64,000 nt of DNA from assembly GCA_000004985.1 (NCBI GenBank), contig GG738846.1. One strand, 5' to 3'. The DNA comes from Naegleria gruberi. Its lineage: Eukaryota. Every line of letters begins with the position of its first letter. The stretch's first letter is position 1. The position numbers and the translations under genes were made by a program. Below the pieces are notes generated by a model. The model had not been told where the DNA came from. It searched no databases and saw nothing but the letters and a program-made list of their open reading frames with translations. Shown in pieces: positions 1,428 through 62,261 of the stretch.

Positions 1428-1486
1428 TTTTTGCTGTTATGAAATTAAAATCAATTTTCCTTCTTGTTTTTATTGTTGTGCAAAAA

Positions 1487-1494
1487 TGACGTCA
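1487..1494. promoter_or_regulatory. Perfect TGACGTCA (CRE-like) palindrome inside the roughly 290 bp divergent promoter between SEY1 (minus strand) and the 1716 gene (plus strand)
   Basis: The octamer is read directly from the sequence. It lies between two divergently transcribed start codons at 1427 and 1716. Confidence 0.3.
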
Positions 1495-1715
1495 CAACAA
1501 GAAAGGTGAGAAAATTTGTTTTTAAATTTAAAGAGAGTGTATGGATTTTGATTAACGTGAAGCACATTTATACATGTCGTCATCTATTCGCCATATTGAA
1601 GAGATAGATTGATTTATTATTGCATATTACCATACCGGTTGAGAGTCAATTGAATAAGGTAGCAGCTGGTGCATTTCCCGCCACAAGTTATTATTCCACA
1701 TTAAATTTGAAAAAA

Positions 1716-3614: not shown

Positions 3615-3758
3615 TAAATATCTATTTCAGTGCTATTACAACCCTTTGTCTAGAGAATACCACATAGTCAATCTCAATACCAAATATTGATTTGCAAAGA
3701 GTTGTGAAATTCACATTCATCCCGCCAAATTTACAATGTCAAAAAAACAATCAAAAAA

Positions 3759-14754: not shown

Positions 14755-17700
14755 ATGAACAGGACGGTTAATATTGTTCTCCTTTCCATAGTTTCCGTTC
14801 TAGCCTTATTCTTCCTTTCTGGAGGTGTAAGTGCTGGTTCTGGTATTTACGAAGCAGCATGTAACACTACTGCTGACTGTGTTTCCACATTAGCTTGTGA
14901 TACTAATACATCCCTCTGTATTTGCGATACTGGTTTGGTTAGATATAATGATTCTCTCTGTGTTCCAGCCTGTACTTCTGATGCCAACTGTACTAATGGT
15001 GGTGTCTGTGATTTAACTTCTGGTACTTGTAATTGTACTGCCAATTATGATGGACCAACTTGTACTGATTCTCTAATTGTTCAAGGTAACAATAGTTCTG
15101 ATAGTAGTAACAATGCTACTGACCCATCAAGTCCTTCTGCTAATAATACTGACTCGTCTAATAGTACAGATCCATCAACTCCAAGTGGTAATAACAGTAC
15201 TAACAATGAAACTAATCCATCAACTCCAGGTGGTAATAACAATACTAGTAATGGTACAACTGATCCAACTAATCCATCTTCCAATAATACCGATCCATCA
15301 ACTCCAGGTGGTAACAATAGCACTAACAATGGTACAACTGATCCATCAACTCCAGGTGGTAATAACAGTACTGGTAATAATACCAATCCATCAACTCCAG
15401 GTGGTAATAACAATACTAGTAATGGTACAACTGATCCAACAAATCCAACCAGTAACAACACTAATCCATCTTCCAACAATACCGATCCATCAACTCCAGG
15501 TGGTAATAACAGTACTGGCAATAATACAGATCCATCAACTCCAGGTGGTAATAACAATACTAGTAATGGTACAGCTGATCCAACAAATCCAACCAGTAAC
15601 AACACTAATCCATCAACTCCAGGTGGTAACAATAGCACTAACAATGGTACAACTGATCCAACAAATCCAACAAGTAACAACACTAATCCATCTTCCAATA
15701 ATACTAATCCATCAACTCCAGGTGGTAATAACAGTACTGGTAATAATACCGATCCATCGACTCCAGGTGGTAATAACAATACTAGTAATGGTACAGCTGA
15801 TCCAACAAATCCATCTTCCAATAATACTAATCCATCAACTCCAGGTGGTAATAACAGTACTGGCAATAATACCGATCCATCGACTCCAGGTGGCAACAAT
15901 AGCACTAGCAATGGTACAGTTACTGATAAGTGTACTGATATCAATTGTGTACACGGTTCATGCATTGATGGTGCCTGTCAATGTGAAACTGGTTATACAG
16001 GTTCTCTCTGTGATCAAGCTATTACATCTAACAATACTGATAAGTGTGCTGATATCAATTGTGTCCACGGTTCATGCAGTGAAGGTGTCTGTCAATGTGA
16101 AACTGGTTATACAGGTTCTCTCTGTGATCAAGCTGTTACATCTAACAATACTGATAAGTGTGCTGATATCAATTGTGTCCACGGTTCATGCATTGATGGT
16201 GTCTGTCAATGTGAAACTGGTTATACTGGTTCTCTCTGTGATCAAGCTGTTACATCTAACAATACTGATAAGTGTGCTGATATTAATTGTGTACACGGTT
16301 CATGCATTGATGGTGTCTGTCAATGTGAAACTGGTTATACTGGTACTCTCTGTGATCAAGCTGTTGATCCATGTACCAACATTAAGTGTGGCAGCCATGG
16401 TTCCTGCTCAAAGGGTGTCTGTGTTTGTACTGACGGATACACTGGTTCGAACTGTGAAACTGCTCCAATTACTTGTAATGGTAAGAGTGAAGCTGAAGGT
16501 GGCTGTTCATTCCATGGTACATGTAGCGCCACTGATAAGTGTATTTGTAATGGTAACTTTGACTCTGCCTCTTTCTGTTCAAAGTGTAAGACTGGTTATA
16601 CAGGTTCTGACTGTTCTATTCCAGTTTGTTTCAATGTTCCTTCTACTTCTAGCAGTGTTTGTTCTGGAAAGGGGTCTTGCACAGCTCCTGATTCTTGTGT
16701 ATGTGCTTCTGGTTACTCTGGAAAGACGTGTTCTTCCTTCTCTTGTTGGGGTATTGATAAGTCCAACAGCACTGTATGTGGTGGTAGCTCTAAGGGTACT
16801 TGTGTTGGTCCAAATAAGTGTTCTTGTGTTTCCAACTGGAACAATCTTGAAAATACCTGTGTATCCTGCAGTCCTGCATACACTGGTGAGACTTGTACTC
16901 AAGCTACTTGTTCTGCCAATACAACTTGTAGTTCCCATGGTTCATGCGATGAAAAATTCAAGTGTGTCTGTTCTGGAAACTGGGATGGTGAATTCTGTAA
17001 TGTTTGTAAGGCTGGTTTTGTAGGTGATAACTGTGATATTGCTTGTTCTGCCTCTACTTGTAATGGTAATGGTGTTTGTACCAAGACTGGAGCTTGTTTA
17101 TGTGTTGGTCACTATGATTCTGCCCAAAAGTGTGCTGCTGGTAAATGTGCTGATGGTTTCCAAGGTAGCGCTTGTGACTATAAGGTAGACAGTTCCTCTT
17201 TCGCTTTTAACCAATTTGGTGATAGAATTATTGCCACTGTTTACACTAGTATGAAGAAATCTGTTAACTGTTCTCAAGTTTTCACATCAGTTGCTACCCT
17301 TGGTGCCGGTGTTCAATGTAACATGGACGGTGTCAGTAAGCTCGAAGTTGTTTTGGGGGCTGGTGCTACTGTAAAGCTTGGTGATTCATTGCAAGTTTAT
17401 ACACTCCTTGGTGATGTTTCTAATACTGTTTCCGTAACTGTTAAGGTTGGTAGCTTTGTTGCTGTCGCACCAACTGCTTATTTGACAACCGATAAGGCTG
17501 TTGTTTCCACTTGTGATACTGTCACTTTGAATGCATTTGACTCTGTTTCTACTGATCGTCGTCCATTGAACTTTGCTTGGACTTGCACTGCTGCTCCAAC
17601 TGCTGATGCCCAGACTACATTGAATAATGCTCTCAAGGTTACCTCAAGTGGTGTTAGACTTAACTTGGTTTCTCTTGGTCTTGTTGCTGGTACTTACACT

Positions 17701-20049
17701 GTTCAAGTCACTGTTACTTCATCATTCAGTGCCTCATCATCATCAAAGAGTGTCTCATTCACTGTAACTGCTAGTCCTGCCCCAGGTCTTTCTATTAAGG
17801 AAGGTTCAGTTGTTGAATATTTGATTGGTACTACTAGCATTATCACTCCAGTAATTTCCTTCCCAACATGTTACACGGGTAATGGTTCTGTTGCTTATTC
17901 ATTCGCTTATATCAACTCTATTGCCACTCCAACCATTGTAACTAAGGATAACATGGTTGTTATTGCAAAGACTAGTACTGCCATCTCTACTGTCGGTGAC
18001 TATTACATTGTTGTTACTGCTGCTGCTAATGGAGCTTCTGAAGTTTCCACTACTGTTAGAATTAAGGCTGTTGCAAAGCCATTAACTGTTACATTCAGTG
18101 TTCCAGATATGACCCAATCTAAGGATGATGCTGTTGACTTCACTGTCAATATTGTTGATCCAAGCGATACTACTGGTACTTTGGCCATTACAAGCACTTG
18201 TGTTGATGCTGATGGTAACACATGTGTGGCCCCAGCTGCTACTGAATCTGCCTCATTCTCAAAGTCCTTACCTGCTGGTAAATATACATTCACTACAACA
18301 GGTACAAAGGATATCAGAACTACAACTGCCAAGTTGACTATCACTGTTGTTGATACTGCAAAAGATAAGATTATTAGAGTTTCCATCACATCCAATACTG
18401 ATTTGTCCACTGTTGATCCAACCAAGGACTTGTACTTGACTTATAACACTTTGGATGCCTTGTCTACATCCGCCAAATTTACCTGGACATGTGACTCTGG
18501 TGACAGCAGTACTTCCTCTCTTTTGACAGTTTCAAAGGCTAACATGGTTCCTGGTGCTACCTACACTGCTTCGTTGAATATTGTAGATGGTGTCAAGTCT
18601 GGTTCTGCTATTGTTTCATTCACTGTTAATGCTCCACCAACAAAGGGTATCTTTGAAGCTTATCCACTTTCTGGTGCTGCTTTGAGCGATTCTTTCGATC
18701 TCAAGTGTGGTAATGGTTGGTCTGATCCACAATCTCCATTGAAATTCCAATTCTTATACTTGGATGCTGCATCTAACAATTGGGTTTCACTCACCGAAAA
18801 GACTGAACAACAAAGCACAAAGGTTCAACTTCCTTCACCATCTTCTGGTGACTCTTTGAAGGTTAAGGCTATTGTTTTTGATGCATTGGGTGCTTCAACT
18901 GAATCCGAGCAACTTTCTATCTCAATTACCAAGCCAAGTACTGCTGATGCCACTAAAGCTTTGAGTGGTTTGGCAGAATCAAAGGGCACTATAACCTTGT
19001 CAGCTGCTTCCTCTGCCATGTCTGTCATTGGTACTGTTGATTTGACAACAGCTACTGCTGAACAAAAGACTCAAATTGCTACCGCTGCCGCCGCTATTGC
19101 TGATGCTTTCATTTCTCAACAAACCAAGACTGAAGCTGTTACCTCAGTTTCTGCTGCCTCTGCTGAAAATAGCTTGTCATTCACAGCCTCCCTTGCTAGC
19201 TCAGTTTCTAAGGGTCTCGTTAGTGATGCTACTACTTCAAAGGTTGTTAGCAATTTGGCTTCCACTACTACAAAGGTTGTTTCTGCATCTTCTGTCAGTC
19301 TCTCTGATTCAGTTCTCGATTCTACCAAGAAAACTGCTGACAACTTCTATGGTTACATTTCTGGTAAGGTTTCTGCTAGAGTTCCACCAGTTTCTTCTTT
19401 GAGAGCTTTCAGTAAGGTCGATCTTGACAATTTGAACAGTGTTTACTCTAGTGTTGCTTCTTTGAAGACTAAGGATGCCGTTCCTGATGCTCCAGCTGCA
19501 ACCGTCACCTCAAACGGATTGACCACAGTTTCTCGTAAGGTCAATCTTGCTACTTTGGCCTCTGAATCTCAAGTTGTTTCTGGTAAGAATAAGATCACCT
19601 TCAAGAGTGCCATTGCTGCTAACTCTGCTTTGGCTAGTTTGAAGTCTGTCACTTATGCTGTAAAGACCACCACTTCCACTGTTACATCTGCTGCCTCAAA
19701 GTCTATCGATTTCTCCATTTCTAATGGTGCTTCTCCAGTTGCTGTTTCTGATTCTGCTGCTATTGCCGATTTGGTCTTTGAACTTTCTGCCAAGAGATCT
19801 GTTGCTGCTACTACTTACACATGTAACAAGATTACTAATGGAGTTGCTGCTGCTGATTCAACTTGTACTATTGTTGTTGGTACTGATGGTACTGTAACTG
19901 CTAGTGTCAAGAGCACTGGTGTCTATGTTTTAACTGCTTCCACCCCAGTTACTCCTGCTGCCACCAAGAGTGCTAAGGTCAATGCTGCTCCATCAATGGG
20001 CTTCTCTGCTTTGGTTGCCTTGATCGCTGCTGTTGTTGCTGCTTTGTAA
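14755..20049 (+). CDS. Giant (1764 aa) secreted, probably GPI-anchored surface glycoprotein. It has a signal peptide and a Cys-rich N-terminus. A hyper-N-glycosylated Asn/Thr/Pro repeat stalk follows, then multiple tenascin-type EGF-like repeats. Ser/Thr/Val-rich beta-sandwich units carrying F[AT]WTC motifs come next, then a conserved CGNGWSD...PLKFQF module. The C-terminus is a hydrophobic tail.
   Basis: Single ATG ORF. The signal peptide is MNRTVNIVLLSIVSVLALFFLSGGVSA. There are dozens of NxS/T sequons within NPSTPGGNNSTGNNTDPSTPGG repeats. The EGF spacing CxCxxGYTGxxC recurs. The C-terminus ends ...APSMGFSALVALIAAVVAAL (a GPI-signal-like tail). The reverse-strand ORFs over this region (15081-15965 and others) are repeat artefacts. 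Confidence 0.8.
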   Translation: MNRTVNIVLLSIVSVLALFFLSGGVSAGSGIYEAACNTTADCVSTLACDTNTSLCICDTGLVRYNDSLCVPACTSDANCTNGGVCDLTSGTCNCTANYDGPTCTDSLIVQGNNSSDSSNNATDPSSPSANNTDSSNSTDPSTPSGNNSTNNETNPSTPGGNNNTSNGTTDPTNPSSNNTDPSTPGGNNSTNNGTTDPSTPGGNNSTGNNTNPSTPGGNNNTSNGTTDPTNPTSNNTNPSSNNTDPSTPGGNNSTGNNTDPSTPGGNNNTSNGTADPTNPTSNNTNPSTPGGNNSTNNGTTDPTNPTSNNTNPSSNNTNPSTPGGNNSTGNNTDPSTPGGNNNTSNGTADPTNPSSNNTNPSTPGGNNSTGNNTDPSTPGGNNSTSNGTVTDKCTDINCVHGSCIDGACQCETGYTGSLCDQAITSNNTDKCADINCVHGSCSEGVCQCETGYTGSLCDQAVTSNNTDKCADINCVHGSCIDGVCQCETGYTGSLCDQAVTSNNTDKCADINCVHGSCIDGVCQCETGYTGTLCDQAVDPCTNIKCGSHGSCSKGVCVCTDGYTGSNCETAPITCNGKSEAEGGCSFHGTCSATDKCICNGNFDSASFCSKCKTGYTGSDCSIPVCFNVPSTSSSVCSGKGSCTAPDSCVCASGYSGKTCSSFSCWGIDKSNSTVCGGSSKGTCVGPNKCSCVSNWNNLENTCVSCSPAYTGETCTQATCSANTTCSSHGSCDEKFKCVCSGNWDGEFCNVCKAGFVGDNCDIACSASTCNGNGVCTKTGACLCVGHYDSAQKCAAGKCADGFQGSACDYKVDSSSFAFNQFGDRIIATVYTSMKKSVNCSQVFTSVATLGAGVQCNMDGVSKLEVVLGAGATVKLGDSLQVYTLLGDVSNTVSVTVKVGSFVAVAPTAYLTTDKAVVSTCDTVTLNAFDSVSTDRRPLNFAWTCTAAPTADAQTTLNNALKVTSSGVRLNLVSLGLVAGTYTVQVTVTSSFSASSSSKSVSFTVTASPAPGLSIKEGSVVEYLIGTTSIITPVISFPTCYTGNGSVAYSFAYINSIATPTIVTKDNMVVIAKTSTAISTVGDYYIVVTAAANGASEVSTTVRIKAVAKPLTVTFSVPDMTQSKDDAVDFTVNIVDPSDTTGTLAITSTCVDADGNTCVAPAATESASFSKSLPAGKYTFTTTGTKDIRTTTAKLTITVVDTAKDKIIRVSITSNTDLSTVDPTKDLYLTYNTLDALSTSAKFTWTCDSGDSSTSSLLTVSKANMVPGATYTASLNIVDGVKSGSAIVSFTVNAPPTKGIFEAYPLSGAALSDSFDLKCGNGWSDPQSPLKFQFLYLDAASNNWVSLTEKTEQQSTKVQLPSPSSGDSLKVKAIVFDALGASTESEQLSISITKPSTADATKALSGLAESKGTITLSAASSAMSVIGTVDLTTATAEQKTQIATAAAAIADAFISQQTKTEAVTSVSAASAENSLSFTASLASSVSKGLVSDATTSKVVSNLASTTTKVVSASSVSLSDSVLDSTKKTADNFYGYISGKVSARVPPVSSLRAFSKVDLDNLNSVYSSVASLKTKDAVPDAPAATVTSNGLTTVSRKVNLATLASESQVVSGKNKITFKSAIAANSALASLKSVTYAVKTTTSTVTSAASKSIDFSISNGASPVAVSDSAAIADLVFELSAKRSVAATTYTCNKITNGVAAADSTCTIVVGTDGTVTASVKSTGVYVLTASTPVTPAATKSAKVNAAPSMGFSALVALIAAVVAAL
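15100..15905 (+). repeat. Nested in-frame coding repeats built on a roughly 42 nt (14 aa) unit, encoding an N-glycan sequon-dense Asn/Thr/Pro stalk
   Basis: Recurring ccatcaactccaggtggtaataacagtactgg / gatccaacaaatcca blocks visible in the sequence. Confidence 0.8.
15922..16380 (+). repeat. Four tandem near-identical 123-bp units, each encoding one 41-aa EGF-like module (TDKCADINCVHGSCIDGVCQCETGYTGSLCDQAVTSNN)
   Basis: Units start at about 15922, 16045, 16168 and 16291. Only a handful of substitutions separate the units, which points to recent intragenic duplication or gene conversion. Confidence 0.85.
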
Positions 20050-20152: not shown

Positions 20153-23100
20153 TTAAATCCAATTTTTCTTTGCATCCCGAGTCCAAATTTGTAGCAATTC
20201 GGTGGATCTGAATATTCTTAACAAGTTTACAAACATGGTTTCTTCCATTGCCAAATCCTTATCCTCTCTTGCCTTGTAAATATCTTGACAATAACATAAA
20301 ATCAAATCTACATTGTCCAAATCTTCAAATGTAATTCTTCCAACAAGATTACTGCTGTATAAACGAACAAACTGAGCTACAGCCAACACAAAAGATGTAT
20401 AGAAGGTAATAATACCAAAACTACTGATGGCAGAAATGACAGAATCAGCTGCTACAATATTAGTACTCTGAATAAAAAAGAAAGGACCTCCAGTTATGCT
20501 CTTCAAATTACCACTCTTTTCCAAGGGATAGAACTTTGTTGGTTGTGTACATGACATGAACCAAGAGACAAATCCTGGTGGATTATGCACAAGTTCAGTC
20601 CTCGACGAGTTGTAAACATTTGTTACAGTGAGAGAACAATTTGGCAAGTATCGACTTTCCATAACTGTGGCAGTAGCAAGCGCCGAGTACTTGTTCATCA
20701 TGTATGGATTGTAAGAGAGTGGAATATCAATGCTCTCTTTCAAATTTTCAGAATTGACTTTGGAAACATTATAATTAATCATTTGAGCCAATTGTTTTCG
20801 TTTCCAAGCATTCAATACAATACTTTGCCGAGTTTCCAATTCCAATTGAGTGGATGGACCACTTCTTTTCACAAGTAAACTCATTGTCAAGTTGAGTGCA
20901 AGTGTCTCATTGGCCAATGCTTCCACCATACTCATTCTACTTGGTGTTGAAATGAGCCAATACCTTTCTGAATATGGAGCAAGTGTAAAGTTTTGAATCC
21001 AAAAAGTAGGATCATAATTAGGGAATAATTTCAATCCATTTCCGTCATAGAAATCAACAAAGGTTTCCAAACTCTTTTCTGGATTAACTTTGAAATATTC
21101 ATTCTGATAGAATGGCTCAAAACCTTCAATTCCAATTGAAAATTGAATACTATTCACAGTGTTATAACTGAGAGCAGGATTGGCAGTTGAATAGAACAAT
21201 AATGGAAAGAAGATAATCATGGCAAAGACAATAAATAGCAAAAGACCACTTGTTGCCTTTGTAGTAAGGAAAATACGATTACCAAATCCTTTACCTTGTA
21301 AAATCTTATACTCCAAGTCGCATTTTCTCTTATAAAGTTGACTATAGACATCTTCCAATTTCAAATATTCATAAAAAGTCAATGTAGTATCAATAAATGT
21401 CCAATCCAACAAGGTCTTCAATTCAAATACGAATGGAATTGCTCTGTAAACTAAATAGACGTATTGAGCAATGTAATAGTAAGACTTGGTAAAGAATTGA
21501 GTATATCTTCTCTTTGGATAGCCAGTTCTGATTTGTAAACATCCCAAAAAGAGATAAACACACTTGATAAAGAATAAAATCTTGAGGAGTACCAAACCAA
21601 TAGTATTCTGATTTCTGGAAACTTCAACAAAGAAGGCAATGTAAACAATATGATAAATTAATACAACTAAAAAGTGGAATATCAACTTGCCAGTTGCAGT
21701 GGCAAACAAGTACAATACACGTTCAATACAAATTTCAATAAAGAATAGGAAGAGAATAATGACAAATGTTCCAGAGAGCTCATTAGATTTGATTGCTCCC
21801 AATGTTTCATCGGCAGCTCTACCACTCATACTAGAGAAACTAAAGAAGAAAAAGACAAATGCCAAAATTTCAACTGCAACAGTTACAACATAATAATCTA
21901 TACCAAGTTTGAATTGATCATTTGTTAAACCCTTAAAATGATTAATAAACTTGGATAGTCCTCTTCTGAAAATATTTGGCTTTTCACTGTTATCCTTTTT
22001 ACCTTTCTTATCTTCTTCTTGTTGAACATTGAATTTGACAGTCTTTTTGGACTCTTTCTTCTCCTCATTGTTTGTTGCATTGGATGGTCGAGGTGTTGCA
22101 GTCATGATATCATTGGTTACTAGCTCGACAGATGTTGCTGTGTTGGCTCTATTTCTTCCAGTAGTAGTAGTAGTATTGGTGAGAATTTGTGAATTGGATG
22201 GTAAAATCATTTGATCATCTCTTGGTTCAATGGTAGCATTTGTGGTTGTAATAATTGGATTATCTTGTTGTGTAGTGTTATTTTCTTGTTGATTGGCAGA
22301 GGCAAGTGCAGCTGCAGATAATCTCTTCTTTCTCGAATTGGTCTTCCATTCTCCACGATTTCTAGTAATTTCACGATGGAAAAAGATTGCAAGCATAATT
22401 AACAAGTACATGACAATATCAGCCAATAGAGCTGTACTTGGTTGCCATCCCAATAAGAAAATTGCTGGATCAGATTCAGTTGATTTGAGATTGTCAGGTA
22501 AACCAGATTGTACTAGATATAAAATATATTGAACACTAATCAATAGTTGAGCCAATATAAGCATGAGTTCCCAAAAGTATCTGTGAGGATATGGATATTG
22601 CATGGCTGCATATGTCAATGAAAAGAACGTAAAGGCCGTATTGAAATAAGTTGGAGCATAGAGTAAATTAACCAACATGGCAAAGTAACAAATGACATCC
22701 GTATTGCTGAAGAATAGTTTGGTAAGGGCTACGAGTAATTGTTTCAATTTCAATACAATTGGAACCCAATTGAATGGTTTCTTTTTCATATCGGGATGAA
22801 CTTTGGATTGTTCAAGTTTGAGTTGTAATAAATCATTCAACTCTTGTGTTGTAAATTCTTTTGATTTGAGATTTGGAATATCAGCTTGATCTTCCTTTTC
22901 CTCCTTTTCTTTTTCATCTTCTGTTAATTTAATTTCATCTTCAGGTTGTTGCTCCAATTCAACAAGTGTTTCAGTAGTGGTGGTAGTTTCATTCTTCTTC
23001 TTCCACTCCTCTTCCTTTTCTTCAATGTATTCATTGATGGCATCTGCAATAATTTCATCCAAATTAACTCTATATTTCTTCTTAATTTCCAATTCATCCA

Positions 23101-26100
23101 TCCAAGCAATTCCAATAAATATTTGAATACGATTAACAATCAAATCAGTTAACATGTAAGCGTAGTGACCAACATTGGCAAATACTACAGCAAGTAAACT
23201 CTTTGCTCTAAATAGGAGAGGTAACTTTGGAGTTGATTCCTCTTTCTTATTTTCTTGAGAACCTTCTTGAGCAATTTCTGGAGCAACTTGTTGAATGACC
23301 TTACTCAATGCCTCATTGACAGAGTCATTTCTAGCATGTTTGGATATAATATTCAATTGTTGTTCCAATTTTGAAGATGGTGCACCTAAAACATCGCCAA
23401 GAGCAACAATTCTATCATGTGGAACAATCTTGGAAAGGATATTCTTCATTACCTTTTGAACCTCCTCTTTAGAAATATTACTTGGAAGGAATTCTTGGTT
23501 TGGATCAGATGGAAGATCCAACTGACCACGCTCGAAATGCACAGGTCTTCTCTTTGCTGAATTATCAACTACTAGAGTGGAGCTCTTGTAATTTTGTAAA
23601 TTCTCCAAAGTTGAAACGACTTCTCTCATCTTTTTCTGGAATTTATGCTCTGCCTTCTTCAAGCACTTTTTCATTAATTGTTCTTCCTTATTCAGGTTAG
23701 AGACAATCTTTTTTCTAATCTTGGCTGATTCCTTATTCTCCAAATCCAATAAATCACTCATTGCAAGTGCTAAAATAGCGCGTTCTCTTTCAATCTTTTC
23801 TGAATTCTTGGCATATGCATTGACTACCTTTTCATATTCTTCTTTGAGCATGTGCTTTCTATTGTAGAAACTTTGGAAATCAGAATCCTTGTTCACTTCA
23901 TGGAAACTTCTGAGTGCTTGTCGGTTGGCATCTCTTCTCTTTTCTGAAAAGAGTCCCTCTGCAAACCTTGATAAAATTTGAGCAGCTCTATAAGCTTGAT
24001 TTCTTCTGTACTTGGTGGCCCGTTCTTGACTTTCTCTGTATAGTAAATTAATGAAATGAATGTAATCCTCACTTTCGAATAATAAAATTTGCAAGTAATA
24101 GAGGCAGACTACAATAATTTCGGTGGTAAAACTTTCAAGGCCTCTTGCTTTAAGACCAAATAGGAGGCAAACATTCTTTACCCAACCACTTGTATCATTT
24201 TCGTTACCCCAATTAATAGGATCTCCCAACAATACAATTGGAATTTGATAAATTGCATCAATTACAAATGTTAAATAATAAAAAATACCAATTCCTCTCC
24301 AGAATGGAACTGTTCTCCAATACAATCTATTAAACAAGTTCAAATAGAATAAACAGAGAATCATTTGACCTAATTTGATAACATTTGAATCGATGGCTGC
24401 ATCAATAAACATGACAATCAAGACTATAAAACAAAAGAATCTATAAACTATCAACTTGATCCAATTCCACAATTTCTTTTGTTGATCTGGTGTTGTAAAG
24501 TCTTTGATTTTTTGAATTTTTCCTGTTTCAATGTTACGTTTGATTAAACTGCTTGTATCCAAGTGGACAATAAGTGCATTATCTAATTTCTGGGTTCTGG
24601 AAAGGAAGGATGAAACAATTTCACCTCTCTCACGTTTTGGAAGTTTTTCAGGTTGAGAAACTTCAATATGTTGCAATCTTGCATACATTCCTTTGAAGAA
24701 TACTCGTGCCTGCAAGGCCATAAAGAACATCATCAAGTAGAGAATGACTACAATGTACGTATTGCTAATTACTCCTCCAGATGTAGAGGTCAAATTGAGA
24801 ATAATATACTTGCTAAATATTGGAATATTCATCATGGCTTCGTAAAATTGCATTGAACGAACTATTTGCAATCTAAAGAAGAAGAGAATTAACATGTTAA
24901 TTTCAACAACCATTACTAAAAAGATCCATCCTCTTCTCAAAATTGTACTATTCTTTCCAGTAAAGAAACAAACACCAAAAACAATCAAATAAATGAATCC
25001 CCACAATGTTTGAATCAATGAAAGTGATCCTAACAATAGAGTAAAGAGAGAAATTTCAAATCCATAATCATCATAAAAGTGATTACAATAATATTTGAAA
25101 GATGAGAATAGCTTTCGTAAAAACTTGATAATCTTTCTCTTGTAGAAGGATTTAAAGTTTTCTTCTTCAGTTAAATCAGTTGGATGATCTTCATCAAAGT
25201 TCATCTTTTCAAATTCCTCTCTACTGATATAGATGGTATTTCTATTTCTCGCCTTGGATTTTCTCTTGTCAGCTGATGATGAAGGTCTCAACTTTTGAGC
25301 AAAACTAGCCATTGGATCATTCTTGCTTTTAACATTAACTTCTGCCTCTATGAATAAACATCCCTCATCATAGAGACCTCTACTCTTCATGGATCTCTCC
25401 CAACGATAGGTAACCTTTTGGAGGAGAGATGCAACAAATACCAATAAACTAGACCACAATACATTTCCAATGTGATGTCCTTCTGTTGATCTAGCATCTT
25501 CAAGTCCAATATAACCCAACCAAGTACAAACACCAGTGGAACGACCAAAATTCTCAACTTGATGTTGAACAATTGCTCCCAATGCACTATCACACAAACC
25601 ATTTGTAAAGAATGGATGTTGATAAATATACTTGATTGTCATGATAAATCCACTGTAGAGAGCTATCAAGAACCAAATCTTACTAGCAATAACAGGTGCA
25701 GGAGCAAATACAAGAACTAAAACCAAATAAATCAGACCAATAATATTTGGATTAAAGTTGGAAGCCAAGAAGAGGAAAATAATCAACAATTTAGGAGTAT
25801 GCATAACACAGAAACGTTTCATGACCAAGAAGCATTCCAATAGGAGTGAATCTATTTGCTCACTGAATATAATTTGTTTCTCAATTTTCACATGAGATGA
25901 TTCTTGAATAGTTTCAACAATTTCGTCCATCAATGATGGTGTATGTTCATGAATGTGTGTTGGACCAGTAGTAGTAGTAGGTGGTTGTTGCTGTGGTTGA
26001 TTTGGAATAGTTTGTTCTTGTTCTTTCTTTCTAATTTCTTCTTGTTCCTGCACTGTCTTGATTCTTTGTCTTCTTCTGCCAATAACAAATTGGAAATATT

Positions 26101-29100
26101 TCAATTGAACAATAGTCAATATGGCAATGATCGTGAAAGGAAGTAAACTGACATTCTTGTATTGGTACTTGTATAGACCAATGCTCTTTGGGGTAAGATA
26201 TCCGTAATATGAAGGAATTTCAATTGACTTGTCCAATTCATGTTCTCTGATAAGTTGCTTTGCTCTTTCAACTTCTGGCAAGATACTTTGAATGTAGGCG
26301 TACAGGGATGGGAATTGATAAGCATACTCTACAACAAATACCAAAGTAGAATAGAAAACAAAGACGTACCACAAGCCAACAAAGAATTGGAATAATCTGT
26401 AACCAGCTTTTGTGGAATTTGAATTGTGAACTGAGAGAACATTTAAACAGAAACATGCCATAACAATCATTAGGAATATGAATCCAATAAATGATGCTTC
26501 TTCTTGAAGGAAAATTACCAAAAAGACTGCAAAATAACTTGCCAAAGTTCCTAAAAAGTTTAACAATTCAGTTTCTAAAAAGATCTTATCCCAAACAAGA
26601 ATTAATTTTTCAAAGAATGTGTGCAAGTATGGATTCTTTTCTTTTGTAAACATATCCCATTGATCAAAACTAGTATTAACATTCACATTACCAACTGTCT
26701 TTACATTTGAAATATGATATTGAATACTGGTCAATGTTAGAATGAAAATGTGCCAAATAAGTCCTTTCCAAAACACTCCAAAACTACTTGTACTAATTTG
26801 ATTTTCAATTGTAATAAATGATGGATTAAAACCTATAATTTCATACGGTAAATCAACAACTTCAGGTGCGTACCACACATTGAAGAAGTACAAGGCAAGA
26901 ATAACAAATTGACAATATAGAACTAATAAAATCCATGTTTTTCTTGCAAAGGATGGGAAAATGAAATAGACAGCACAAAATATTACTTGGAAAATGTTAA
27001 ATTCACAGTGTGAAAAAGTAACTTACAATAAATAGCATGAAGTAAATCAGCATTTTCAGATGTCAAATCGGCAAAGTAGCAAACAATCAAACTCAAATAG
27101 AAACTGTTTCTCACAAAGAGAATGAGCAATACTTTCCAAATATAGTCAAAGAGTATAATCTTAATAGTTTGTAAAATCAACTTGATCTTAACCCAAACTC
27201 TTTTAGATGTATTTTGTGGTTCACACTCAACCTCTCCCAAATTATTGTCTGCTTCATCATTGATTTTATCCAATTCAGTCATGTCAACATTAGTTGGGTC
27301 TCTAATAGAATCTGAGAATACTGAATCATGAATAGATTGATCACCCATTGCAGGAGACATTATAACATCCAAATCACTATCTTCCTCATTGGTATAATAG
27401 ATGGATCTACGTTTAATATCCATAGAAGTTGATCTGTTACTATTAACAGAATCATTTGGAACAAGGGGAGCTGTATCATCCATTCCATAGTTATTATTGA
27501 TAGAACGTTTGTGGAACCAATATTTTGTAGATTTTAAAAATGCTAAACGTTATTCGAGTATTTGAATAAGAAAACATACCTTTTCGTTGAGAACCAGTCG
27601 AAGCAGCAGCAGTATTACTTGTTGATACTGTTTTTTTATGTCTCTTCAATAGCTTGGATACAGCACTAACTCTTACAGTCAACCCCATAAATAAGGACAA
27701 GATTAATTGACCAAAAATGACTGCAACAAGAACAATAGATCTACCACTATCACTAACATCTGTTAAAAAAGCTCCAACAGTTGTTCCTACAATGGCTCTA
27801 TAGAGAATTCCTTGAAGAGGATAAAACAATACTCCTCCACTTCCAGATGGATTAAATTCTTTTAGTAAAAGTAGTATGTGAAAAATTAAATAAATAATTA
27901 CAATTAAAACATACCATTTGCTGACATTTCTGTGGTTTGTGGAATGTATGATGCAAAATTTGGCATTTGGAAAACATATTGAGCACAAATATAAAGCAAA
28001 CTATAAATGAAACAGAAAGGTAACAGAATTACCATGACCTTATTGGTTTCAAATCTTGGTCCTGGTGATAAAACCATACCAAGATAAAGGAAAAGTAAAT
28101 AGGGAAGTGAACACAAACTTGGAACGGACAAAATGATACAAATCAATGCAATCATCAATGCATAGAGAATGAACTTTTGCAATTGTTCATATAAGAACAT
28201 TCTAAACTTGTAAGATGATTCATAAATGGAATGTACACCACCTGCAATTCCACCCATTGAAGTGTGTTCATCAATTTCTATTAATCTTCTCTCTTCAGAT
28301 TTATAGTACAAATCCTGAAGATATTCCTCAGAGTTTGTATCCAAATCTTCCTTATTAGAAATCATGGTTGGCAAAAGTGTTAAAAACTTTTTAACTTGTC
28401 TTTGTAGTTCTCTTTCTTGTAAAACTTTTGCAATATATTGACAAACAAAGTTACAAGCCAAGATGAATGTAATTAGAACAAATGTGATGAAAACATATCC
28501 AGTGTAGAACTTTTTGAAAAATTCAAATGATTTCAAATTACCATCAATATCAAAAAATCCAGCCATTTTACCATACGGATTTTGTAAAATCATTTTAGAA
28601 AAGTAACCAGTTGAGGAGATTGAATTGGTTTGGAAACGTGTTAAAAAGTAGAAAATGAGCAAGAGTATAGAATAAACTTGTGTAAATATAAATAATCTAA
28701 TGATGAATTGTAATAGTTATGAAAATTATTATAATTATATATTAAATTTAAAATAAACATACCCAATTGAAATAAAAGTCTTCAAGCTACCAAAACTGGC
28801 AAGTGTAATAATTAAAAAACTCAATAATAAATAAGGAATTCCTACAAAACTTGGATAAAAACTTGCAGTAATCATCAAAAAGAGTGCGAATATAATCAAT
28901 TTCAATTCATGAATATTGACATGTTTCTTTTCAGTCTTTTCCTTTGGAGGCATTGATCCAACATGAGTTACTGAAGTTTTCAATTCTTGTACAGAACATG
29001 TCAAGAGCTTTGGATGTTTAGTAAAAACACCAGGTAAATCCCACATGTACATGGTAGCTCCCTTAACTTTAGGAATTGATTCAATTTGTTGTTTCTTCAA

Positions 29101-56638: not shown

Positions 56639-59200
56639 CTATTCCAGAATGATGAGATCATTTTGATTACACAACGAGGTCAAATCAAATGATTCACCCA
56701 CTAGTTGTTTTTGGATGGCAACAAGTGGCTCCATAGAATGTATTCTGGCAAACATAATTTCCTCAACTTGATGAGTAAATGTATAGTGTTGCTGTTGACA
56801 AGCATTCTTTCCTGTTAGAATTTCTACAACAACAGATGATGTTGGACTTGGTCTTACTGCTGTGTTCAAATCATTGTAACCAATATTCGTGAATTGATTA
56901 CAAAAGTGTGCAATATCCCTCTCTCTAATTTCCTTAATGATGCAAATAATAGGTTCTTTAGAATCGCGTTCATGTAATTTCACATAATTGCCCTCTTCAA
57001 ATATCTTTCCATTAAAATCTGCAGCAGTAAATCTGACATGGAATGGATTTTTCATTCTTACTGATTTGATTCTTCTCTCTCTCTTCATCTCCAAGTCTGA
57101 CAACTGAGCCAACTCGTTAGGAATGGCAAACAAGCTCTGTACCGATGCATCTTCTATTTCCTTAAAATCAAAATTCTTGAACACATAATCTGAATAATAG
57201 TGTTTTTTGGAACGTTTCTTTTTGGTAGTAAAAGTTTCCAAATTTCCAATGAATATCTTGTGATTGATGGAGGACAAATCAACTCGAATAGTTTTGGACG
57301 TGGCATTCAATTTTTTAGGATTGTTTGCATCTGGAATATATTCAGTGCCCAACATTTCCTTACTCTCTGTAACATAGTCCTTATAGTACAATTGATCAAT
57401 ACGAAGAAATTTTGAAGAATCTGTGAAGGGTCCAGAAACTGTCACAACATCTCCCACAAAGTACTGATCCAATTTCCATTCAGAAGAGTCTTCATATTTT
57501 CTCTTCCCACACAAGATCTTTTGTTTGGACAAACGTACAAAACATGTTTTTTGTTGATTGCTCTTTTCTTGCTTGAGGAAATAGTCACCTGTTGTTAGAT
57601 TGGACAAATCATCAAAGGTGGATTTTGGCTCGTCAATCATACTGGTATTGAATTGTTGAAGTGAAGTATTCATGAAGGAGGTTGAGAAGGAACGTTCCAG
57701 CTTGTCCAATTTAATCTTCTTATGGGAAGTATTCATTACTAGTGAGGTATTCAGAGCAATATTACTGGAATTGAGTCTTTTACTTGCTGCTGAGGATGAG
57801 ATTTGTTTCTTCTTTGCAGATTGTGTTCGAATGTCGAGAACGCTTGCATTTGTATCCTGTATAATGAGTGAATCATCTTGTTGTTTCACATTGGAGAACC
57901 ATTTCGAAGCCAGATTATTCGAAGAATCAAATATCCTTCTAGACCTGGCGGGATTTGGAATGACTGAAGGTGTAGGTGTAGGTGTATAGAAAGGAGAAGT
58001 TAGGGAATCATCCAAACTGGCGACCAATGGTGGAATGATGAGATTTGGCTTCCTTGACTTGTTGGTTGGATTTTCTGGAAGTTTTGTAATTTTCAAATCC
58101 TCAAAGTTATACTCTGATGATATGATCATTTGAATGACAGAGTCCTTATTCAGAATTGGGACCTTCTTAATATTAAAGTAATCTAAACGTTGTTTGCTAA
58201 TTTCTGATGTATCCCTCACAAGAACAAAATTCCTACTGCCTTGTCCATGTTTTGAAGAGTAGGTGGCAATGTCACCAACAGTGGCACCACCCGACTCGAG
58301 AACCTTCTTCCACGAATCGATAAATTTCACATCACTACAATTAATCTTTACAGAAACGCCATAGAGTGGTCGTTTCTCTTTTGGTAACATTTGGAATGTT
58401 GGATTGAATAGTTGAGCTTCCTCTCTAAATATACCATCAGTTGTTGTAAAAGATCCTCTAGCTAGCAAGTACTTATCCACATCTGTTGTAATTATCGATT
58501 TTTGATTCAAGCTGTCAATAATCCACTCCTTTTTTAAAAGTGGAATATTTAACATGAGAGCTGCCAAATAACTTGGTCTTGGTTTTGGGCTATCAGAAAT
58601 GAGAACCAGCTTGTCATTCGCCAATTCATTCAATCCCTCAGAGTACCAAGCAAAGTCTTTTTTAATACTTGCCATCTTGCCACCATTATCCTTGACAAGT
58701 TTAGAATATTGCTCCCTTTCTTCTGGTGTAAAATCAGGAGCAATGATGTAAAAACCAGTGAATAAGCCACAAGGGGTTTCATCCATATCCTGACTACTAC
58801 TGCTATAGATAATATCCAAATCATTATCCTTTAGCATTACAGATTCCTCCAAGACTTGGGATGATTCCTTTCTGATGGATCTTCTTCTCCTAGCTACTGT
58901 TCTCTTATTTGTTCTTGAACGGTAGCAGAAGCTTTCACATAAATCATCAGAAGATCCATGTGATGATGATGATGATTGGGTATTGCTACCCTGTGATGAT
59001 GAGGCTGATGATGAATAATAGTCCAACTTCTCAAGAGTTTGTTTAATTTCTTCATTATCAGAATCATCACCACTATTACCGAATAATATTGGTGAAGAGG
59101 GATCATCAATGATGGTTTTTGCTATTGGTGACGCAAATATTGGAGAGGCTGGTTCAATAGGTTCCAACATTGGATCTATTGGCTCATAGTCTTCGAACAT
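56639..59200 (-). CDS. BRCT-domain protein (853 aa) with an acidic N-terminus, a Ser-rich linker and a C-terminal roughly 300-aa region with tentative BAH/Tudor-like character. It is probably a DNA-damage or chromatin factor.
   Basis: The BRCT-like block is FTGFYIIAPDFTPEEREQYSKLVKDNGGKMASIKKDFAWYSEGLNELANDKLVLISDSPKPRPSYLAALMLNIPLLKKEWIIDSL. The C-terminal domain is not confidently assigned. Confidence 0.55.
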   Translation of the reverse strand: MFEDYEPIDPMLEPIEPASPIFASPIAKTIIDDPSSPILFGNSGDDSDNEEIKQTLEKLDYYSSSASSSQGSNTQSSSSSHGSSDDLCESFCYRSRTNKRTVARRRRSIRKESSQVLEESVMLKDNDLDIIYSSSSQDMDETPCGLFTGFYIIAPDFTPEEREQYSKLVKDNGGKMASIKKDFAWYSEGLNELANDKLVLISDSPKPRPSYLAALMLNIPLLKKEWIIDSLNQKSIITTDVDKYLLARGSFTTTDGIFREEAQLFNPTFQMLPKEKRPLYGVSVKINCSDVKFIDSWKKVLESGGATVGDIATYSSKHGQGSRNFVLVRDTSEISKQRLDYFNIKKVPILNKDSVIQMIISSEYNFEDLKITKLPENPTNKSRKPNLIIPPLVASLDDSLTSPFYTPTPTPSVIPNPARSRRIFDSSNNLASKWFSNVKQQDDSLIIQDTNASVLDIRTQSAKKKQISSSAASKRLNSSNIALNTSLVMNTSHKKIKLDKLERSFSTSFMNTSLQQFNTSMIDEPKSTFDDLSNLTTGDYFLKQEKSNQQKTCFVRLSKQKILCGKRKYEDSSEWKLDQYFVGDVVTVSGPFTDSSKFLRIDQLYYKDYVTESKEMLGTEYIPDANNPKKLNATSKTIRVDLSSINHKIFIGNLETFTTKKKRSKKHYYSDYVFKNFDFKEIEDASVQSLFAIPNELAQLSDLEMKRERRIKSVRMKNPFHVRFTAADFNGKIFEEGNYVKLHERDSKEPIICIIKEIRERDIAHFCNQFTNIGYNDLNTAVRPSPTSSVVVEILTGKNACQQQHYTFTHQVEEIMFARIHSMEPLVAIQKQLVGESFDLTSLCNQNDLIILE

Positions 59201-59441
59201 TTTTTTTGTTTTTAACAGACAATTAAAGCGGGAATTATTCTTTCCAAAGAAGTTGTTATGTGGGGTAATGTGATGGCAATGTTATACTAGTAACAGGGCC
59301 AACACAGTTTTAAATTAAAATTAATAAGAAACGTAATCCAGTATGTGGGTGAAGAAAGTGAAATAAATTACCATCATTGCAAGAGTAATAATAATTATAA
59401 ATTATCATCAAAGACGTTAAATATTTTTGAAGTTAGAAAAA

Positions 59442-59948
59442 ATGGACGGAAACAATTATTACTCTCCAACAGCACAATCACCAGGTGCTACCTATGCTTC
59501 GCCACACTATGTATCACCATCATCATATACACCAGGTGGTGTACCAATGTCTCCTAATGCCACATCTAATCCTTTCCAACCTTCATCTCACCAACAACAA
59601 TTGCAAGAAAGCTTGCCATCTTTGAATCAACCATCTAGTACTACTGCTAAGCGTGAAAAAACTGTAGCTGTTGTTTATATTTGCGGACATTGTGCTGTTT
59701 TGAACACTATTAAACAAGGTGATGCTATCCGTTGTAAGAATTGTGGTTATCGTATCATGTACAAACAAAGAACGACGAGAAGTAAGTGTTATTTGTGTTT
59801 TGTATGATGACTAATTTGATTGTTATTGTTTTGTTGAAAAATAACGTTGTTTGGATTGATTTAAAACTATTTCTAAATGTAATGAATTTTATTGTGGAAT
59901 TTTATGGAAATTATAACAAAATTAGAGATCCAATTTGAAGCTAGATAA
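59442..59948 (+). CDS. RPB12: RNA polymerase I/II/III common subunit RPABC4 (Rpb12/Rpc10) with an unusual roughly 60-aa Tyr/Ser/Pro-rich N-terminal extension. Two exons: 59442-59781 and 59926-59948.
   Basis: The zinc ribbon is [43 protein letters not shown] donor, a 144-nt intron and an aaattag acceptor lead to K-IQFEAR*, matching the conserved Rpb12 C-terminus (yeast ...RTKRMIQFDAR). The N-terminus [27 protein letters not shown] resembles Pol II CTD heptads. Confidence 0.75.
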
Positions 59949-59984: not shown

Positions 59985-62261
59985 TTATTTCTTTTTAAAG
60001 AGCGAGAAGGTTGACTTTTTGTTATTGGAATGAGTTTCCTTTGGATTGGCACCTTCTTTCGATTTGATAACACTGGATGGAGATGATTGCTCACTTCTAG
60101 GAATAATAGTTGTCAAATAATTGAAAACTTTGCGATTTCTGATGAATGAATTCATTTGTGACATGAATTTCAGAGCAATTTGATGATCCTTGGAGTTGGA
60201 CTTGACAATAATAGTGGAAAGATATAATTTTGGTGTCACTTGACACAAGTAGTAGGTGGTCAGGGTTTTTGGATCTGAAAAGTAGAAGGCCTCTTCTGAA
60301 ACTTCCAAGTCAGCACTATTTTCCATAATGAGGGAGAGTATGTTTGGCCAATAGGTGTACATAAGAGTTTGCTTTGAGATTTTGTTTTCATCTTGTGTTT
60401 GAGGATAGTGAAAGATGCATGGGTAGAGTTTGATACCACTTAGAGTAATATCATCCGGATTCTCTAAATTTCTCAACCTTAACATGTATCCCTTCTCTGG
60501 GTCAGTTTCTAATATAGGTGATGTATCTAAATTGTCATGGGATGCATTGTAAATCAAACAAACTGTTTCAGGTTTGATAATTTCATTAAATGATTTTATC
60601 CATTGGATATAGTCCACTGCAAGTGTTGGCGACATGTTTGAAGCCATAGATTGGTTATTTTGGTTTGAAGTCATTTGACTAGATTGATTATTGACGATAT
60701 CATGGAAAATTAGAGTGAACTTTGATTGACTGAATCCAAAAATCATGGTCATCCATTTGTATAAATTTGTCCTGCTTAAATTATTCATAGTTTGGCCATT
60801 TGTATGGTTCATATTATTGTTCAAATTAATTCCATTATTTGATAATAAATTTTGGGAAGAGGAATTGAGTTGATTGGAGGAAATATTGCCAGTTGAAGAG
60901 GAGTGAAATTTTTCATTGTTAATTTGTAAATGTTGTTGTTGCTGGTGTTGCTGTTGTTGGTCATTTTGGTGATGAACTAGCAAATTGTCTTCACTCAATG
61001 ATCGACTTAATGTACTACTTGTGGTAATAGTATTACTACTTGCAGGTATTGAAATATTCGAGCTCTGGGGTGTATTAATATTGGATTGTGGGTTGAGAGT
61101 ATTGGAAGATGGTTGTCGTGCAATAAATAGCTGATTCCATTGTTTGAATAGACTTTTAGTCCTCCATAGTGTAAAAACAGATTCCTTATATTTGTAATTA
61201 CAAATATTGTATTCACATTCGAATAGAGATGTCAAGGTATTCAATTCCATGTTAATACTTTGGACAATTTTCTCGAAAAATGTATGATTAATTCTATTGA
61301 TATATTTAGATTTCAAACTATTGATAATTCTGACATAGTTATCATATTTTGGTGGATGTTTGTATCTGGAGAGAATTCTATAAAATGCAATAATTTCCAA
61401 TCTCAATTGAATAAGTACTCTAAAGTCCTTAATCAATTGTTTGCTCAATATAAATTCCTTATCAATCAGATTCAAATTATATTTTTGAACACCATTTGTT
61501 GGTTGAAGTACTTGTTTGTAATAAATATAATCAATATTTGCACTCGGATTACTATTCATTGATGGTGAATTATTATTTTGGTCCATCATCATCATCATCA
61601 TGAGTAAATGGTCACTCGATTGATGGTCATGATTATTGTAAATTGAACTGTCCACATTATTATTGTTATTATTGGTAAATTCATACGGAGCATTCATAGA
61701 AATTAGAGACAAATTACTCGATAAAAGTGAATAAAGGGAATGCAAATCTTGTTTTTCATTTGGTGAATAATTAGCATCATAATATAAAGTCTCGCATTGA
61801 ATAAATCTCCTCAGGCATCCAATAATTTCATCCTCTATTTGTTTATACTTTGAATTCCGATTGACAATTTGGGAATTTTGATTTGTTGAATTTTTAATCA
61901 AATGGTTGGCTTGAGAAAAATCCAATTGAGACATGTAGTGAAAATACAAGTAAATATTTCCATACTCGGAATTATTTTCAATATTATTATTATTAACACC
62001 TAAATTGAGTTGTGTTGACGATGTTGACGTTATTGATGAAGATGAAGAATTGTGACTCATACTACCCTGTGTACCAGTCGTTGATATAAAATGATGAAAA
62101 AATCGTTTTGATTGTTGTTCATATTGTTGATCAAGAGTTGAAGAATAGGCTACAGAGGATGTAGAATTAGATGAAATGGACGATTGTGGAGTGGAAACAT
62201 TGGAATGTTGGTGGTGATGATTCGGAGTTGTGGGTGTTGGTGGATGATTGTTATTATTCAT
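59985..62261 (-). CDS. Asn/Gln/Ser-rich hypothetical protein (758 aa) with a structured C-terminal roughly 250-aa region; unassigned
   Basis: ATG-initiated ORF MNNNNHPPTPTTPNHHHQHS... containing poly-N, poly-Q (QQQQHQQQQH) and poly-M (MMMMMMD) runs. Confidence 0.5.
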   Translation of the reverse strand: MNNNNHPPTPTTPNHHHQHSNVSTPQSSISSNSTSSVAYSSTLDQQYEQQSKRFFHHFISTTGTQGSMSHNSSSSSITSTSSTQLNLGVNNNNIENNSEYGNIYLYFHYMSQLDFSQANHLIKNSTNQNSQIVNRNSKYKQIEDEIIGCLRRFIQCETLYYDANYSPNEKQDLHSLYSLLSSNLSLISMNAPYEFTNNNNNNVDSSIYNNHDHQSSDHLLMMMMMMDQNNNSPSMNSNPSANIDYIYYKQVLQPTNGVQKYNLNLIDKEFILSKQLIKDFRVLIQLRLEIIAFYRILSRYKHPPKYDNYVRIINSLKSKYINRINHTFFEKIVQSINMELNTLTSLFECEYNICNYKYKESVFTLWRTKSLFKQWNQLFIARQPSSNTLNPQSNINTPQSSNISIPASSNTITTSSTLSRSLSEDNLLVHHQNDQQQQHQQQQHLQINNEKFHSSSTGNISSNQLNSSSQNLLSNNGINLNNNMNHTNGQTMNNLSRTNLYKWMTMIFGFSQSKFTLIFHDIVNNQSSQMTSNQNNQSMASNMSPTLAVDYIQWIKSFNEIIKPETVCLIYNASHDNLDTSPILETDPEKGYMLRLRNLENPDDITLSGIKLYPCIFHYPQTQDENKISKQTLMYTYWPNILSLIMENSADLEVSEEAFYFSDPKTLTTYYLCQVTPKLYLSTIIVKSNSKDHQIALKFMSQMNSFIRNRKVFNYLTTIIPRSEQSSPSSVIKSKEGANPKETHSNNKKSTFSLFKKK

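Follow-up and report, generated by a model that had tools for sequence, protein, structure and literature searches.

Does an RNA polymerase subunit other than Rpb1 carry a tail that works like the Rpb1 C-terminal domain (CTD)? The question is raised by positions 59442-59948 (plus strand) of a 64,000-nucleotide stretch of contig GG738846.1 from Naegleria gruberi (the window; GC 34%), which hold the gene for Rpb12/RPABC4. Rpb12 is a zinc-ribbon adapter between the second-largest subunit and Rpb3 in the nuclear RNA polymerases (Pol), and a sequence-only reading of the locus had described an additional N-terminal segment of roughly 60 residues resembling degenerate YSPTSPS repeats, quoting a 32-letter peptide that corresponds to residues 7-38. 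Our analysis leaves little doubt about the structural and evolutionary part of the answer, namely that this Rpb12 is bona fide and bears a translated, clade-conserved and predicted-disordered tail. The tail is best read as similar in chemistry to the CTD or to the C-terminal region (CTR) of Spt5, and not in architecture, being neither a heptad array nor derived from one. Overall, the explanation that we favor, with modest confidence, is a disordered tail peculiar to this lineage that carries many short-motif and proline-directed phospho-acceptor sites. We found no description of this extended Rpb12 in the literature that we searched.

Identity and structure of the gene

The spliced coding sequence comprises 363 nt and specifies a protein of 120 aa. 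Exon 1 (59442..59781, plus strand, as are all features of this gene) begins with the ATG at 59442 and contains codons 1-113 and the first base of Lys114. It is followed by a phase 1 intron of 144 nt (59782..59925, GTAAGT...TTAG, GC 22%) and by a micro-exon of 23 nt (exon 2, 59926..59948), which supplies the last two bases of Lys114, the residues IQFEAR and the stop codon TAA, and which represents the conserved C-terminal end of Rpb12 (...KIQFEAR). The coordinates and the intron length in the sequence-only reading were exact, and its terminal micro-exon is retained, although the count of seven codons ascribed to that exon is corrected here: the exon has six codons in full, two of the three bases of the split Lys codon, and the stop.

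The RPABC4 zinc ribbon, of the form CX2C...CX2C (59676..59771, residues 79-110, with Cys 81, 84, 98 and 101), matched Pfam PF03604 (Zn_ribbon_RPAB4) over residues 79-110 and profile positions 1-32 of 32, with an E value of 2e-15 and 56.6 bits against a cut-off of 24. Spliced residues 74-120 aligned with the solved Rpb12 chains of plants, fission yeast, budding yeast and human through the last residue, and the basic C-terminal family segment, YK(K/Q)RT(K/T)R-x-x-Q/V-F/Y-E/D-A-R, is present in the spliced N. gruberi protein. By every sequence criterion tested the protein belongs to the Rpb12/RPABC4 family, and the identity first proposed for the gene is borne out by the PF03604 match and by the alignment to solved chains. 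The ribbon is the feature held in common with Rpb12 (ABC10-alpha, RPABC4 or POLR2K) of yeast, human and plants and with archaeal subunit P (Rpo12), and the basic RT(K/R)R...QFEAR C-terminus aligns end to end with the solved chains. The tail is what differs; that of Naegleria and Willaertia is 2.5-4 times longer than that of model-organism Rpb12, which lacks the [ST]P, Tyr and NPF motif content of the Naegleria-clade tail.

The translation of exon 1 was 100% identical over 94% of the query to an N. gruberi 'predicted protein' at NCBI (P0001). This public model (121 aa) runs through the GTAAGT donor and ends in ...SKCYLCFV; it therefore misses the micro-exon and, with it, the seven residues that close the conserved C-terminal segment. 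The same read-through error occurs in the gene calls for three of the relatives described below (P0003, P0006 and P0008). Many fungal-like environmental Rpb12 genes (L027, L032, L034, L035, L021, L042 and L051) likewise show junk directly after RT(K/R)R, and its appearance in these unrelated genes suggests that the phase 1 intron ahead of the final ~7 codons is ancient and common, and not peculiar to Naegleria.

Translation of the N-terminal extension

The extension occupies 59442..59657 (residues 1-72), and the central concern was whether it is protein at all. The ATG at 59442 is the first in-frame ATG, with an in-frame stop 8 codons upstream, and it lies in an A-rich context (AAAAATGG), as does the start codon in every species compared. 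We scored codons 1-72 with a codon-usage log-likelihood trained on 13 long open reading frames (ORFs) of the window, and obtained a log-likelihood ratio of +38.3 bits in frame, compared with values between -15 and -43 in the other five frames. The probability of 75 stop-free codons at the local base composition is ~0.003.

The protein is also unusually long for an Rpb12. The first Cys is at residue 81, while every solved Rpb12 chain has a total length of 46-76 aa, and most environmental Rpb12 genes encode only 16-42 residues before the first Cys. Measured against these short chains and environmental tails, 50-60 extra residues are real, close to the figure of roughly 60 given originally. The sequence-only reading had recognized that its proposal would fall if translation began at an internal Met just upstream of the ribbon, or if the upstream region were a 5' untranslated region (5'UTR). 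There is no such Met; apart from the initiator, M36 is the sole Met ahead of the ribbon, and a start there would still leave ~43 extra residues. The second alternative is contradicted by the in-frame coding signal and by an orthologue from an uncultured heterolobosean (P0003), which has no internal Met before the ribbon.

Among the Rpb12 entries of animals and plants in the databases, most long 'extensions' result from upstream ORFs called by mistake, the true MD(S/T)QKD... start being internal; these entries were disregarded. An artefact of this kind, with a spurious ORF or 5'UTR upstream of a real start at codon 36 (M36) or at a non-AUG codon close to the ribbon, is hardly credible for N. 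gruberi. The codon-usage score is strongly positive in this frame only, an MD-Y-Y-S-P start is kept in three species with homology reaching residue 1, and a metagenomic contig carrying another relative (P0005) looks like a polyadenylated, intron-free transcript containing the whole ORF. The coding score and the upstream stop, together with the lack of any internal Met ahead of the P0003 ribbon, rule out a 5'UTR or internal start, and the extension is translated sequence.

Conservation of the tail in Heterolobosea

Long S/T/P/Y-rich tails were present in two other full-length homologues, the Rpb12 of Willaertia magna (P0002, 163 aa, starting MDYSYSSP...) and P0003 (loci L001 and L002, starting MDYYSSP...), and the N-terminus MD..Y(Y)S(S)P is common to all three full-length homologues. 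The gene adjoining P0003 on L001 encodes a product with 50% identity to an N. fowleri protein and 64% to one of W. magna, identities that make P0003 the representative of a third heterolobosean lineage. Four metagenomic proteins with S/P-rich tails (P0005, P0006, P0008 and P0014) were added by a profile search against 1.84 billion representative proteins, in which the best 150 of 1198 matches were examined; within those 150 the matches that spanned the extension were to Rpb12 proteins only.

Comparing Rpb12 orthologues in related taxa had been proposed as a check on the extension. When the tails alone were aligned by the Smith-Waterman method and compared with shuffles, the z score was 4.6 for N. 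gruberi and W. magna, 6.7 for N. gruberi and P0003, 6.3 for W. magna and P0003, 8.0 for P0003 and P0005, and 3.2 for P0006 and P0008. The extension is found in W. magna, P0003 and P0005 with order-dependent homology, and as judged from these alignments the tail is kept in order as well as in composition across the Naegleria/Willaertia clade of Heterolobosea. The invariant positions in the three full-length homologues are M1, D2, Y6, Q12, P14, G15, P21, P26, P31, G32, P44, F45 and P47. They include a Q-[ST]-P-G core (Q12, P14 and G15), which occurs once per tail in each of the three species.

The gene structure is shared as well. The intron position and the K[IV]QFEAR micro-exon are common to N. 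gruberi, W. magna, P0003, P0006 and P0008, and the loci with the same intron position and ending are L001, L003, L086 and L089. The contig of P0005 (L085) has no intron, and it ends in an A-run 25 nt after an AATAAA signal; it is probably a spliced, polyadenylated transcript with the whole extended ORF. Within positions 45-1662 the same contig also carries a complete ORF of 388 aa for a KN-type homeobox protein, only 80 nt upstream of the P0005 ORF; either the assembly is chimeric, or the transcript is polycistronic or a read-through product.

P0014 stands apart from this group. It is encoded by an intron-less gene on L004 and ends in MMVFNAR, and its tail showed no consistent positional homology to the others (z = 0.6-2.2), which suggests that it is probably an independent S/P-rich tail. 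This tail holds the strings F-S-P-P-T-S-P and F-S-P-T-S-G-P, which are nearer to a heptad than any string in Naegleria. L004 is a eukaryotic metagenome contig of 225 kb from the European Nucleotide Archive, and in its region 615-6366 a gene for Spt5 (NGN and KOW1-7) lies ~1.4 kb upstream of P0014.

Contigs from Joint Genome Institute (JGI) metagenomes were also scanned. A close-relative scan with the N. gruberi protein gave no match, and a profile scan returned 80 ordinary Rpb12 loci, which served as background for tail length, and no new extended member.

Composition and motif content of the tail

The extension is polar and almost uncharged, with only 4 charged residues in the first 71, and is composed of 20% S, 15% P, 10% Q, 8% T and 7% Y; over the tails compared, S, P, T and Y together make up 47-56% of residues. 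Its layout consists of an N-terminal [ST]P cluster, a single [NS]PF motif, a Gln-rich polar linker and a short basic patch before the first ribbon strand. The cluster of Tyr and [ST]P (59457..59555, residues 6-38) contains six [ST]P sites (S8, S13, S20, S25, T30 and S37), five of which lie in Y-x(0,1)-[ST]-P motifs (YYSP, YSP, YASP, YVSP and YTP). The [NS]PF motif, N43-P44-F45 in N. gruberi (59568..59576), is a candidate short linear motif, and each of the six clade members has one copy after its [ST]P cluster. AlphaFold2 assigned residues 1-70 a confidence (pLDDT) of ~50 and no secondary structure, compared with ~86 for the ribbon, and the extension is accordingly predicted to be intrinsically disordered.

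To quantify the motif content, we compared each tail with shuffles of its own sequence. The first 45 residues of the N. gruberi protein contain 6 [ST]P sites where 2.2 are expected (p = 0.004), and the 5 occurrences of Y-x(0,1)-[ST]-P compare with 0.4-0.5 expected, a count that was reached in 0 of 2000 shuffles. With each species tested separately, [ST]P was 2-3 times more frequent than in shuffles, and p did not exceed 0.005 for five of the seven tails. Each tail of the three full-length homologues had 4-6 occurrences of the pattern aromatic-x(0,1)-[ST]-P versus 0.4-1.0 expected, an enrichment of 4-11 times with p from 0 to 0.014. None of 14,036 windows of 45 aa from 22 neighboring ORFs attained the N. 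gruberi counts, the maxima being 4 [ST]P and 1 Y-x-[ST]-P. The tail is therefore not the ordinary N/Q/S-rich low complexity of this genome, which characterizes the neighboring ORFs. Low complexity produced by recent slippage was rejected too, since Tandem Repeats Finder (score of at least 30) detected no DNA tandem repeat in the extension.

These results bear directly on a rival explanation, that the tail is a weakly constrained disordered spacer, a lineage-specific expansion that is polar, Pro-rich and soluble and was tolerated without any specific partner or regulatory role. In its favor, clade members differ in tail length (46-123 residues; the first Cys comes after 80 residues in N. gruberi and after 123 in W. 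magna), yeast can do without its tail, an S/P-rich tail recurs in P0014 without positional homology, and other eukaryotes have long tails of other composition, such as the 61-aa G/N/A-rich tail of Batrachochytrium. A mere spacer, however, would not be expected to show order-dependent conservation (z = 4.6-8) across species in which the identity of flanking genes is only 50-64%, 13 invariant positions from M1 to P47 in three full-length homologues, enrichment of [ST]P and aromatic-x-[ST]-P species by species, or one [NS]PF motif in six of six clade members, with no DNA repeats pointing to slippage. We consider a spacer unlikely, though it has a real share of the probability.

The composition could also be that of an aromatic-sticker low-complexity domain of the FUS, EWS or CTD type, in which the main role would be weak, multivalent association through Tyr that aids partitioning of polymerases into transcription or nucleolar condensates, and phosphorylation of [ST]P sites would dissolve the contacts. 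Five to seven Tyr in a polar S/P/Q/G/T context with almost no charge, together with the predicted disorder, are consistent with such a role, and PMC11393077 documents phase separation of the CTD that is reversed by phosphorylation. However, the tail is short and its aromatics are few (5 in N. gruberi, and only 1-3 in P0006 and P0008), and we regard a sticker domain as highly unlikely.

Comparison with the CTD and the Spt5 CTR

The CTD, (YSPTSPS)n, and the Rpb12 tail share the character of a disordered Y/S/T/P-rich segment with Ser-Pro near Tyr that is nearly uncharged before phosphorylation. The two differ in most other respects, as the Rpb12 tail is N-terminal, is on another subunit, has only ~40 residues of this kind, and contains no tandem heptads or YSPxSP, its motifs being spaced irregularly at 4-7 residues. 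In the CTD the SP sites alternate at spacings of 3 and 4, with a Tyr every 7 residues. The Tyr of the N. gruberi tail are at residues 6, 7, 18, 23 and 29 (spacings 1, 11, 5 and 6), and its [ST]P sites are spaced at 5, 7, 5, 5 and 7, with spacings of 3-10 in W. magna; no 7-residue periodicity was detected in the N. gruberi tail. The unit [YF]SP.SP did not occur in N. gruberi, W. magna, P0003, P0005, P0008 or P0014, and its single match was FSPHSP in P0006. Smith-Waterman alignment to (YSPTSPS)12 did no better than composition-preserving shuffles, with p = 0.30 for N. gruberi, 0.10 for W. magna and 0.22 for P0003, and a range of 0.08-0.48 over the tails compared and of 0.17-0.30 for N. gruberi. 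The similarity in order to (YSPTSPS)n does not exceed that due to shared composition, and the unit that does recur is Y-x-[ST]-P at irregular spacing.

Results of these three comparisons (periodicity, unit pattern and shuffle-controlled alignment) rule out a degenerate heptad array. The part of the original description that concerned a Y/S/P/T-rich tail with clustered Ser-Pro sites stands, but the degenerate YSPTSPS repeats that it saw there do not, given the spacing, the missing unit and p = 0.17-0.30. A search of 5.8 billion proteins with the extension alone matched only itself, indicating no multi-word similarity to any Rpb1 CTD, and the possibility that the extension was copied from another protein, such as the Rpb1 CTD, was discarded on the same result. 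Periodicity, core unit and order similarity are thus lacking, and what remains in common with a CTD array is compositional, a disordered Y/S/T/P-rich segment with excess [ST]P; the tail may therefore at most work like a CTD or Spt5-CTR phospho-tail without being one.

It is conceivable that the tail is nevertheless a true CTD mimic, phosphorylated by CTD kinases (CDK7/9/12 orthologues) and read by CTD-interaction domains and by capping or processing factors. Such a mimic might compensate for a repeat-less Rpb1 extension in N. gruberi and extend CTD-type recruitment to Pol I and III. The Y/S/P/T-rich composition, one near-heptad (YSPTAQSP), five Tyr-proximal [ST]P sites and the expected exit of the tail near the wall of the second-largest subunit would fit this proposal, as would the C-terminal extension of N. 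gruberi Rpb1, which PMC3646058 characterizes as S/P-rich and without repeat structure. Set against these points are the missing heptad periodicity, the absence of [YF]SPxSP from N. gruberi, W. magna, P0003 and P0005, alignment scores not above composition-matched shuffles, a main motif of Y-x-[ST]-P and not Y-S-P, the loss of Tyr in P0006 and P0008, and the self-match of the extension search. A true mimic is, in our estimation, improbable. We give similarly little credence, and slightly less, to the idea that a CTD-type phospho-code was partly moved to or duplicated on heterolobosean Rpb12, so that CTD- or Spt5-type kinases and readers of pSer-Pro would act on all three polymerases.

The Spt5 CTR offers a second comparison. 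Motifs of the human Spt5 CTR include GS(R/Q)TP...Y and a P-[ST]-P-S-P-x-x-Y region, and these appear to resemble the Q-[ST]-P-G and Y-x-S-P of the Rpb12 tail at least as well as the CTD does. The CTR differs in belonging to another protein, in its location, and in being recognizably repetitive, which the Rpb12 tail is not. A CTR repeats a short motif whose Ser or Thr before Pro is a target of CDK9 or Bur1; the Q-[ST]-P-G core of the Rpb12 tail is single. Like the tail considered here, the CTR is a tail of the transcription machinery outside Rpb1, and PMC4787787 describes its phosphorylation alongside the CTD.

Proposed role of the tail

The explanation that we favor is that a eukaryote-specific N-terminal tail of Rpb12 was enlarged in heteroloboseans into a flexible multi-site module. 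The tail would emerge from the surface of the enzyme close to the wall and protrusion of the second-largest subunit. Because it is almost uncharged, multi-site phosphorylation at the 6-15 [ST]P sites would make it strongly acidic. Phosphorylated sites could then provide pSer/pThr-Pro docking for WW- or Pin1-type readers, and phosphorylation may also alter how the tail contacts neighboring factors or nucleic acid. Provided that Naegleria polymerases share the subunit as those of other eukaryotes do, the effect would extend to Pol I, II and III together; that Rpb12 is common to the three enzymes in Naegleria is an assumption taken from knowledge of the family. The phospho-regulated docking surface on a shared subunit that was first suggested for this locus is therefore plausible on the basis of motif content and conservation, and we put forward phospho-docking as the function of the tail tentatively, as a possibility somewhat short of an even chance.

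Several observations weigh against this explanation. The yeast protein has a eukaryote-specific N-terminal extension of its own (aa 1-28), the loss of which results in only a mild temperature-sensitive defect (PMC2680338), and archaeal P, which lacks the extension, complements a yeast rpb12-null mutant (PMC2680338; PMC13257274). As the yeast extension is dispensable, the Naegleria tail may matter little. None of the [ST]P sites in N. gruberi has K or R at +2 or +3, and as kinase motifs they are consequently no more than minimal. The more distant clade members P0006 and P0008 have Phe in place of Tyr or have lost it, indicating that conservation runs deeper for the [ST]P sites and the NPF motif. 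Mildly S/P/G-rich short N-terminal tails (MDSPSPSQ...) are common in environmental Rpb12 genes, and the S/P-rich tail of P0014, without positional homology to the others, suggests that such a composition arises easily.

Genomic context

The gene is flanked on both sides by genes on the minus strand. Upstream and divergent from it is a gene for a tandem-BRCT protein of 853 aa (56639-59200), and the 241 nt between its start codon (59200) and the Rpb12 ATG form the intergenic region 59201..59441, which presumably acts as a promoter shared with the BRCT gene and includes a short 5'UTR. Its GC content is 27%, compared with 40% in exon 1. The BRCT protein contains the only other tail-like patch found locally (SPFYTPTPTPSVIPNP, around residue 400). 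Downstream and convergent is a gene for a KICSTOR C12orf66-like protein of 758 aa (59985-62261), the stop codon of which is 36 nt from that of Rpb12. Elsewhere in the window, two very long ORFs, of 1764 aa (14755-20049, plus strand) and 2246 aa (20153-26893, minus strand), were used as background for codon usage or motif counts.

On L001 of the uncultured heterolobosean, an RCC1-repeat gene (3077-5023, minus strand) directly adjoins Rpb12. In W. magna the RCC1 homologue (ABK040_010891) and Rpb12 (ABK040_010802) are on the same 275-kb contig (JBEGDK010000059.1), and are not adjacent. We saw no synteny of L001 or of the W. magna contig with the N. gruberi window.

Implications

A practical consequence of this work is that the public model of N. 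gruberi Rpb12 has a wrong C-terminus. More broadly, Rpb12 is usually seen as a tiny, invariant structural adapter. If the proposed role is true, the tail would represent a lineage-specific regulatory handle on all three nuclear polymerases at once, in a lineage of deep-branching eukaryotes that includes the pathogen genus Naegleria. It would also join the Rpb1 CTD and the Spt5 CTR as a third case in which the transcription machinery has recruited a Tyr/Ser-Pro-rich tail, and would bear on how easily CTD-like chemistry can evolve and on how much weight the heptad architecture itself carries. Should a CTD-type code prove to have been relocated to Rpb12, which we think improbable, heteroloboseans would provide a natural experiment on the positions at which the enzyme can accommodate a CTD-like platform.

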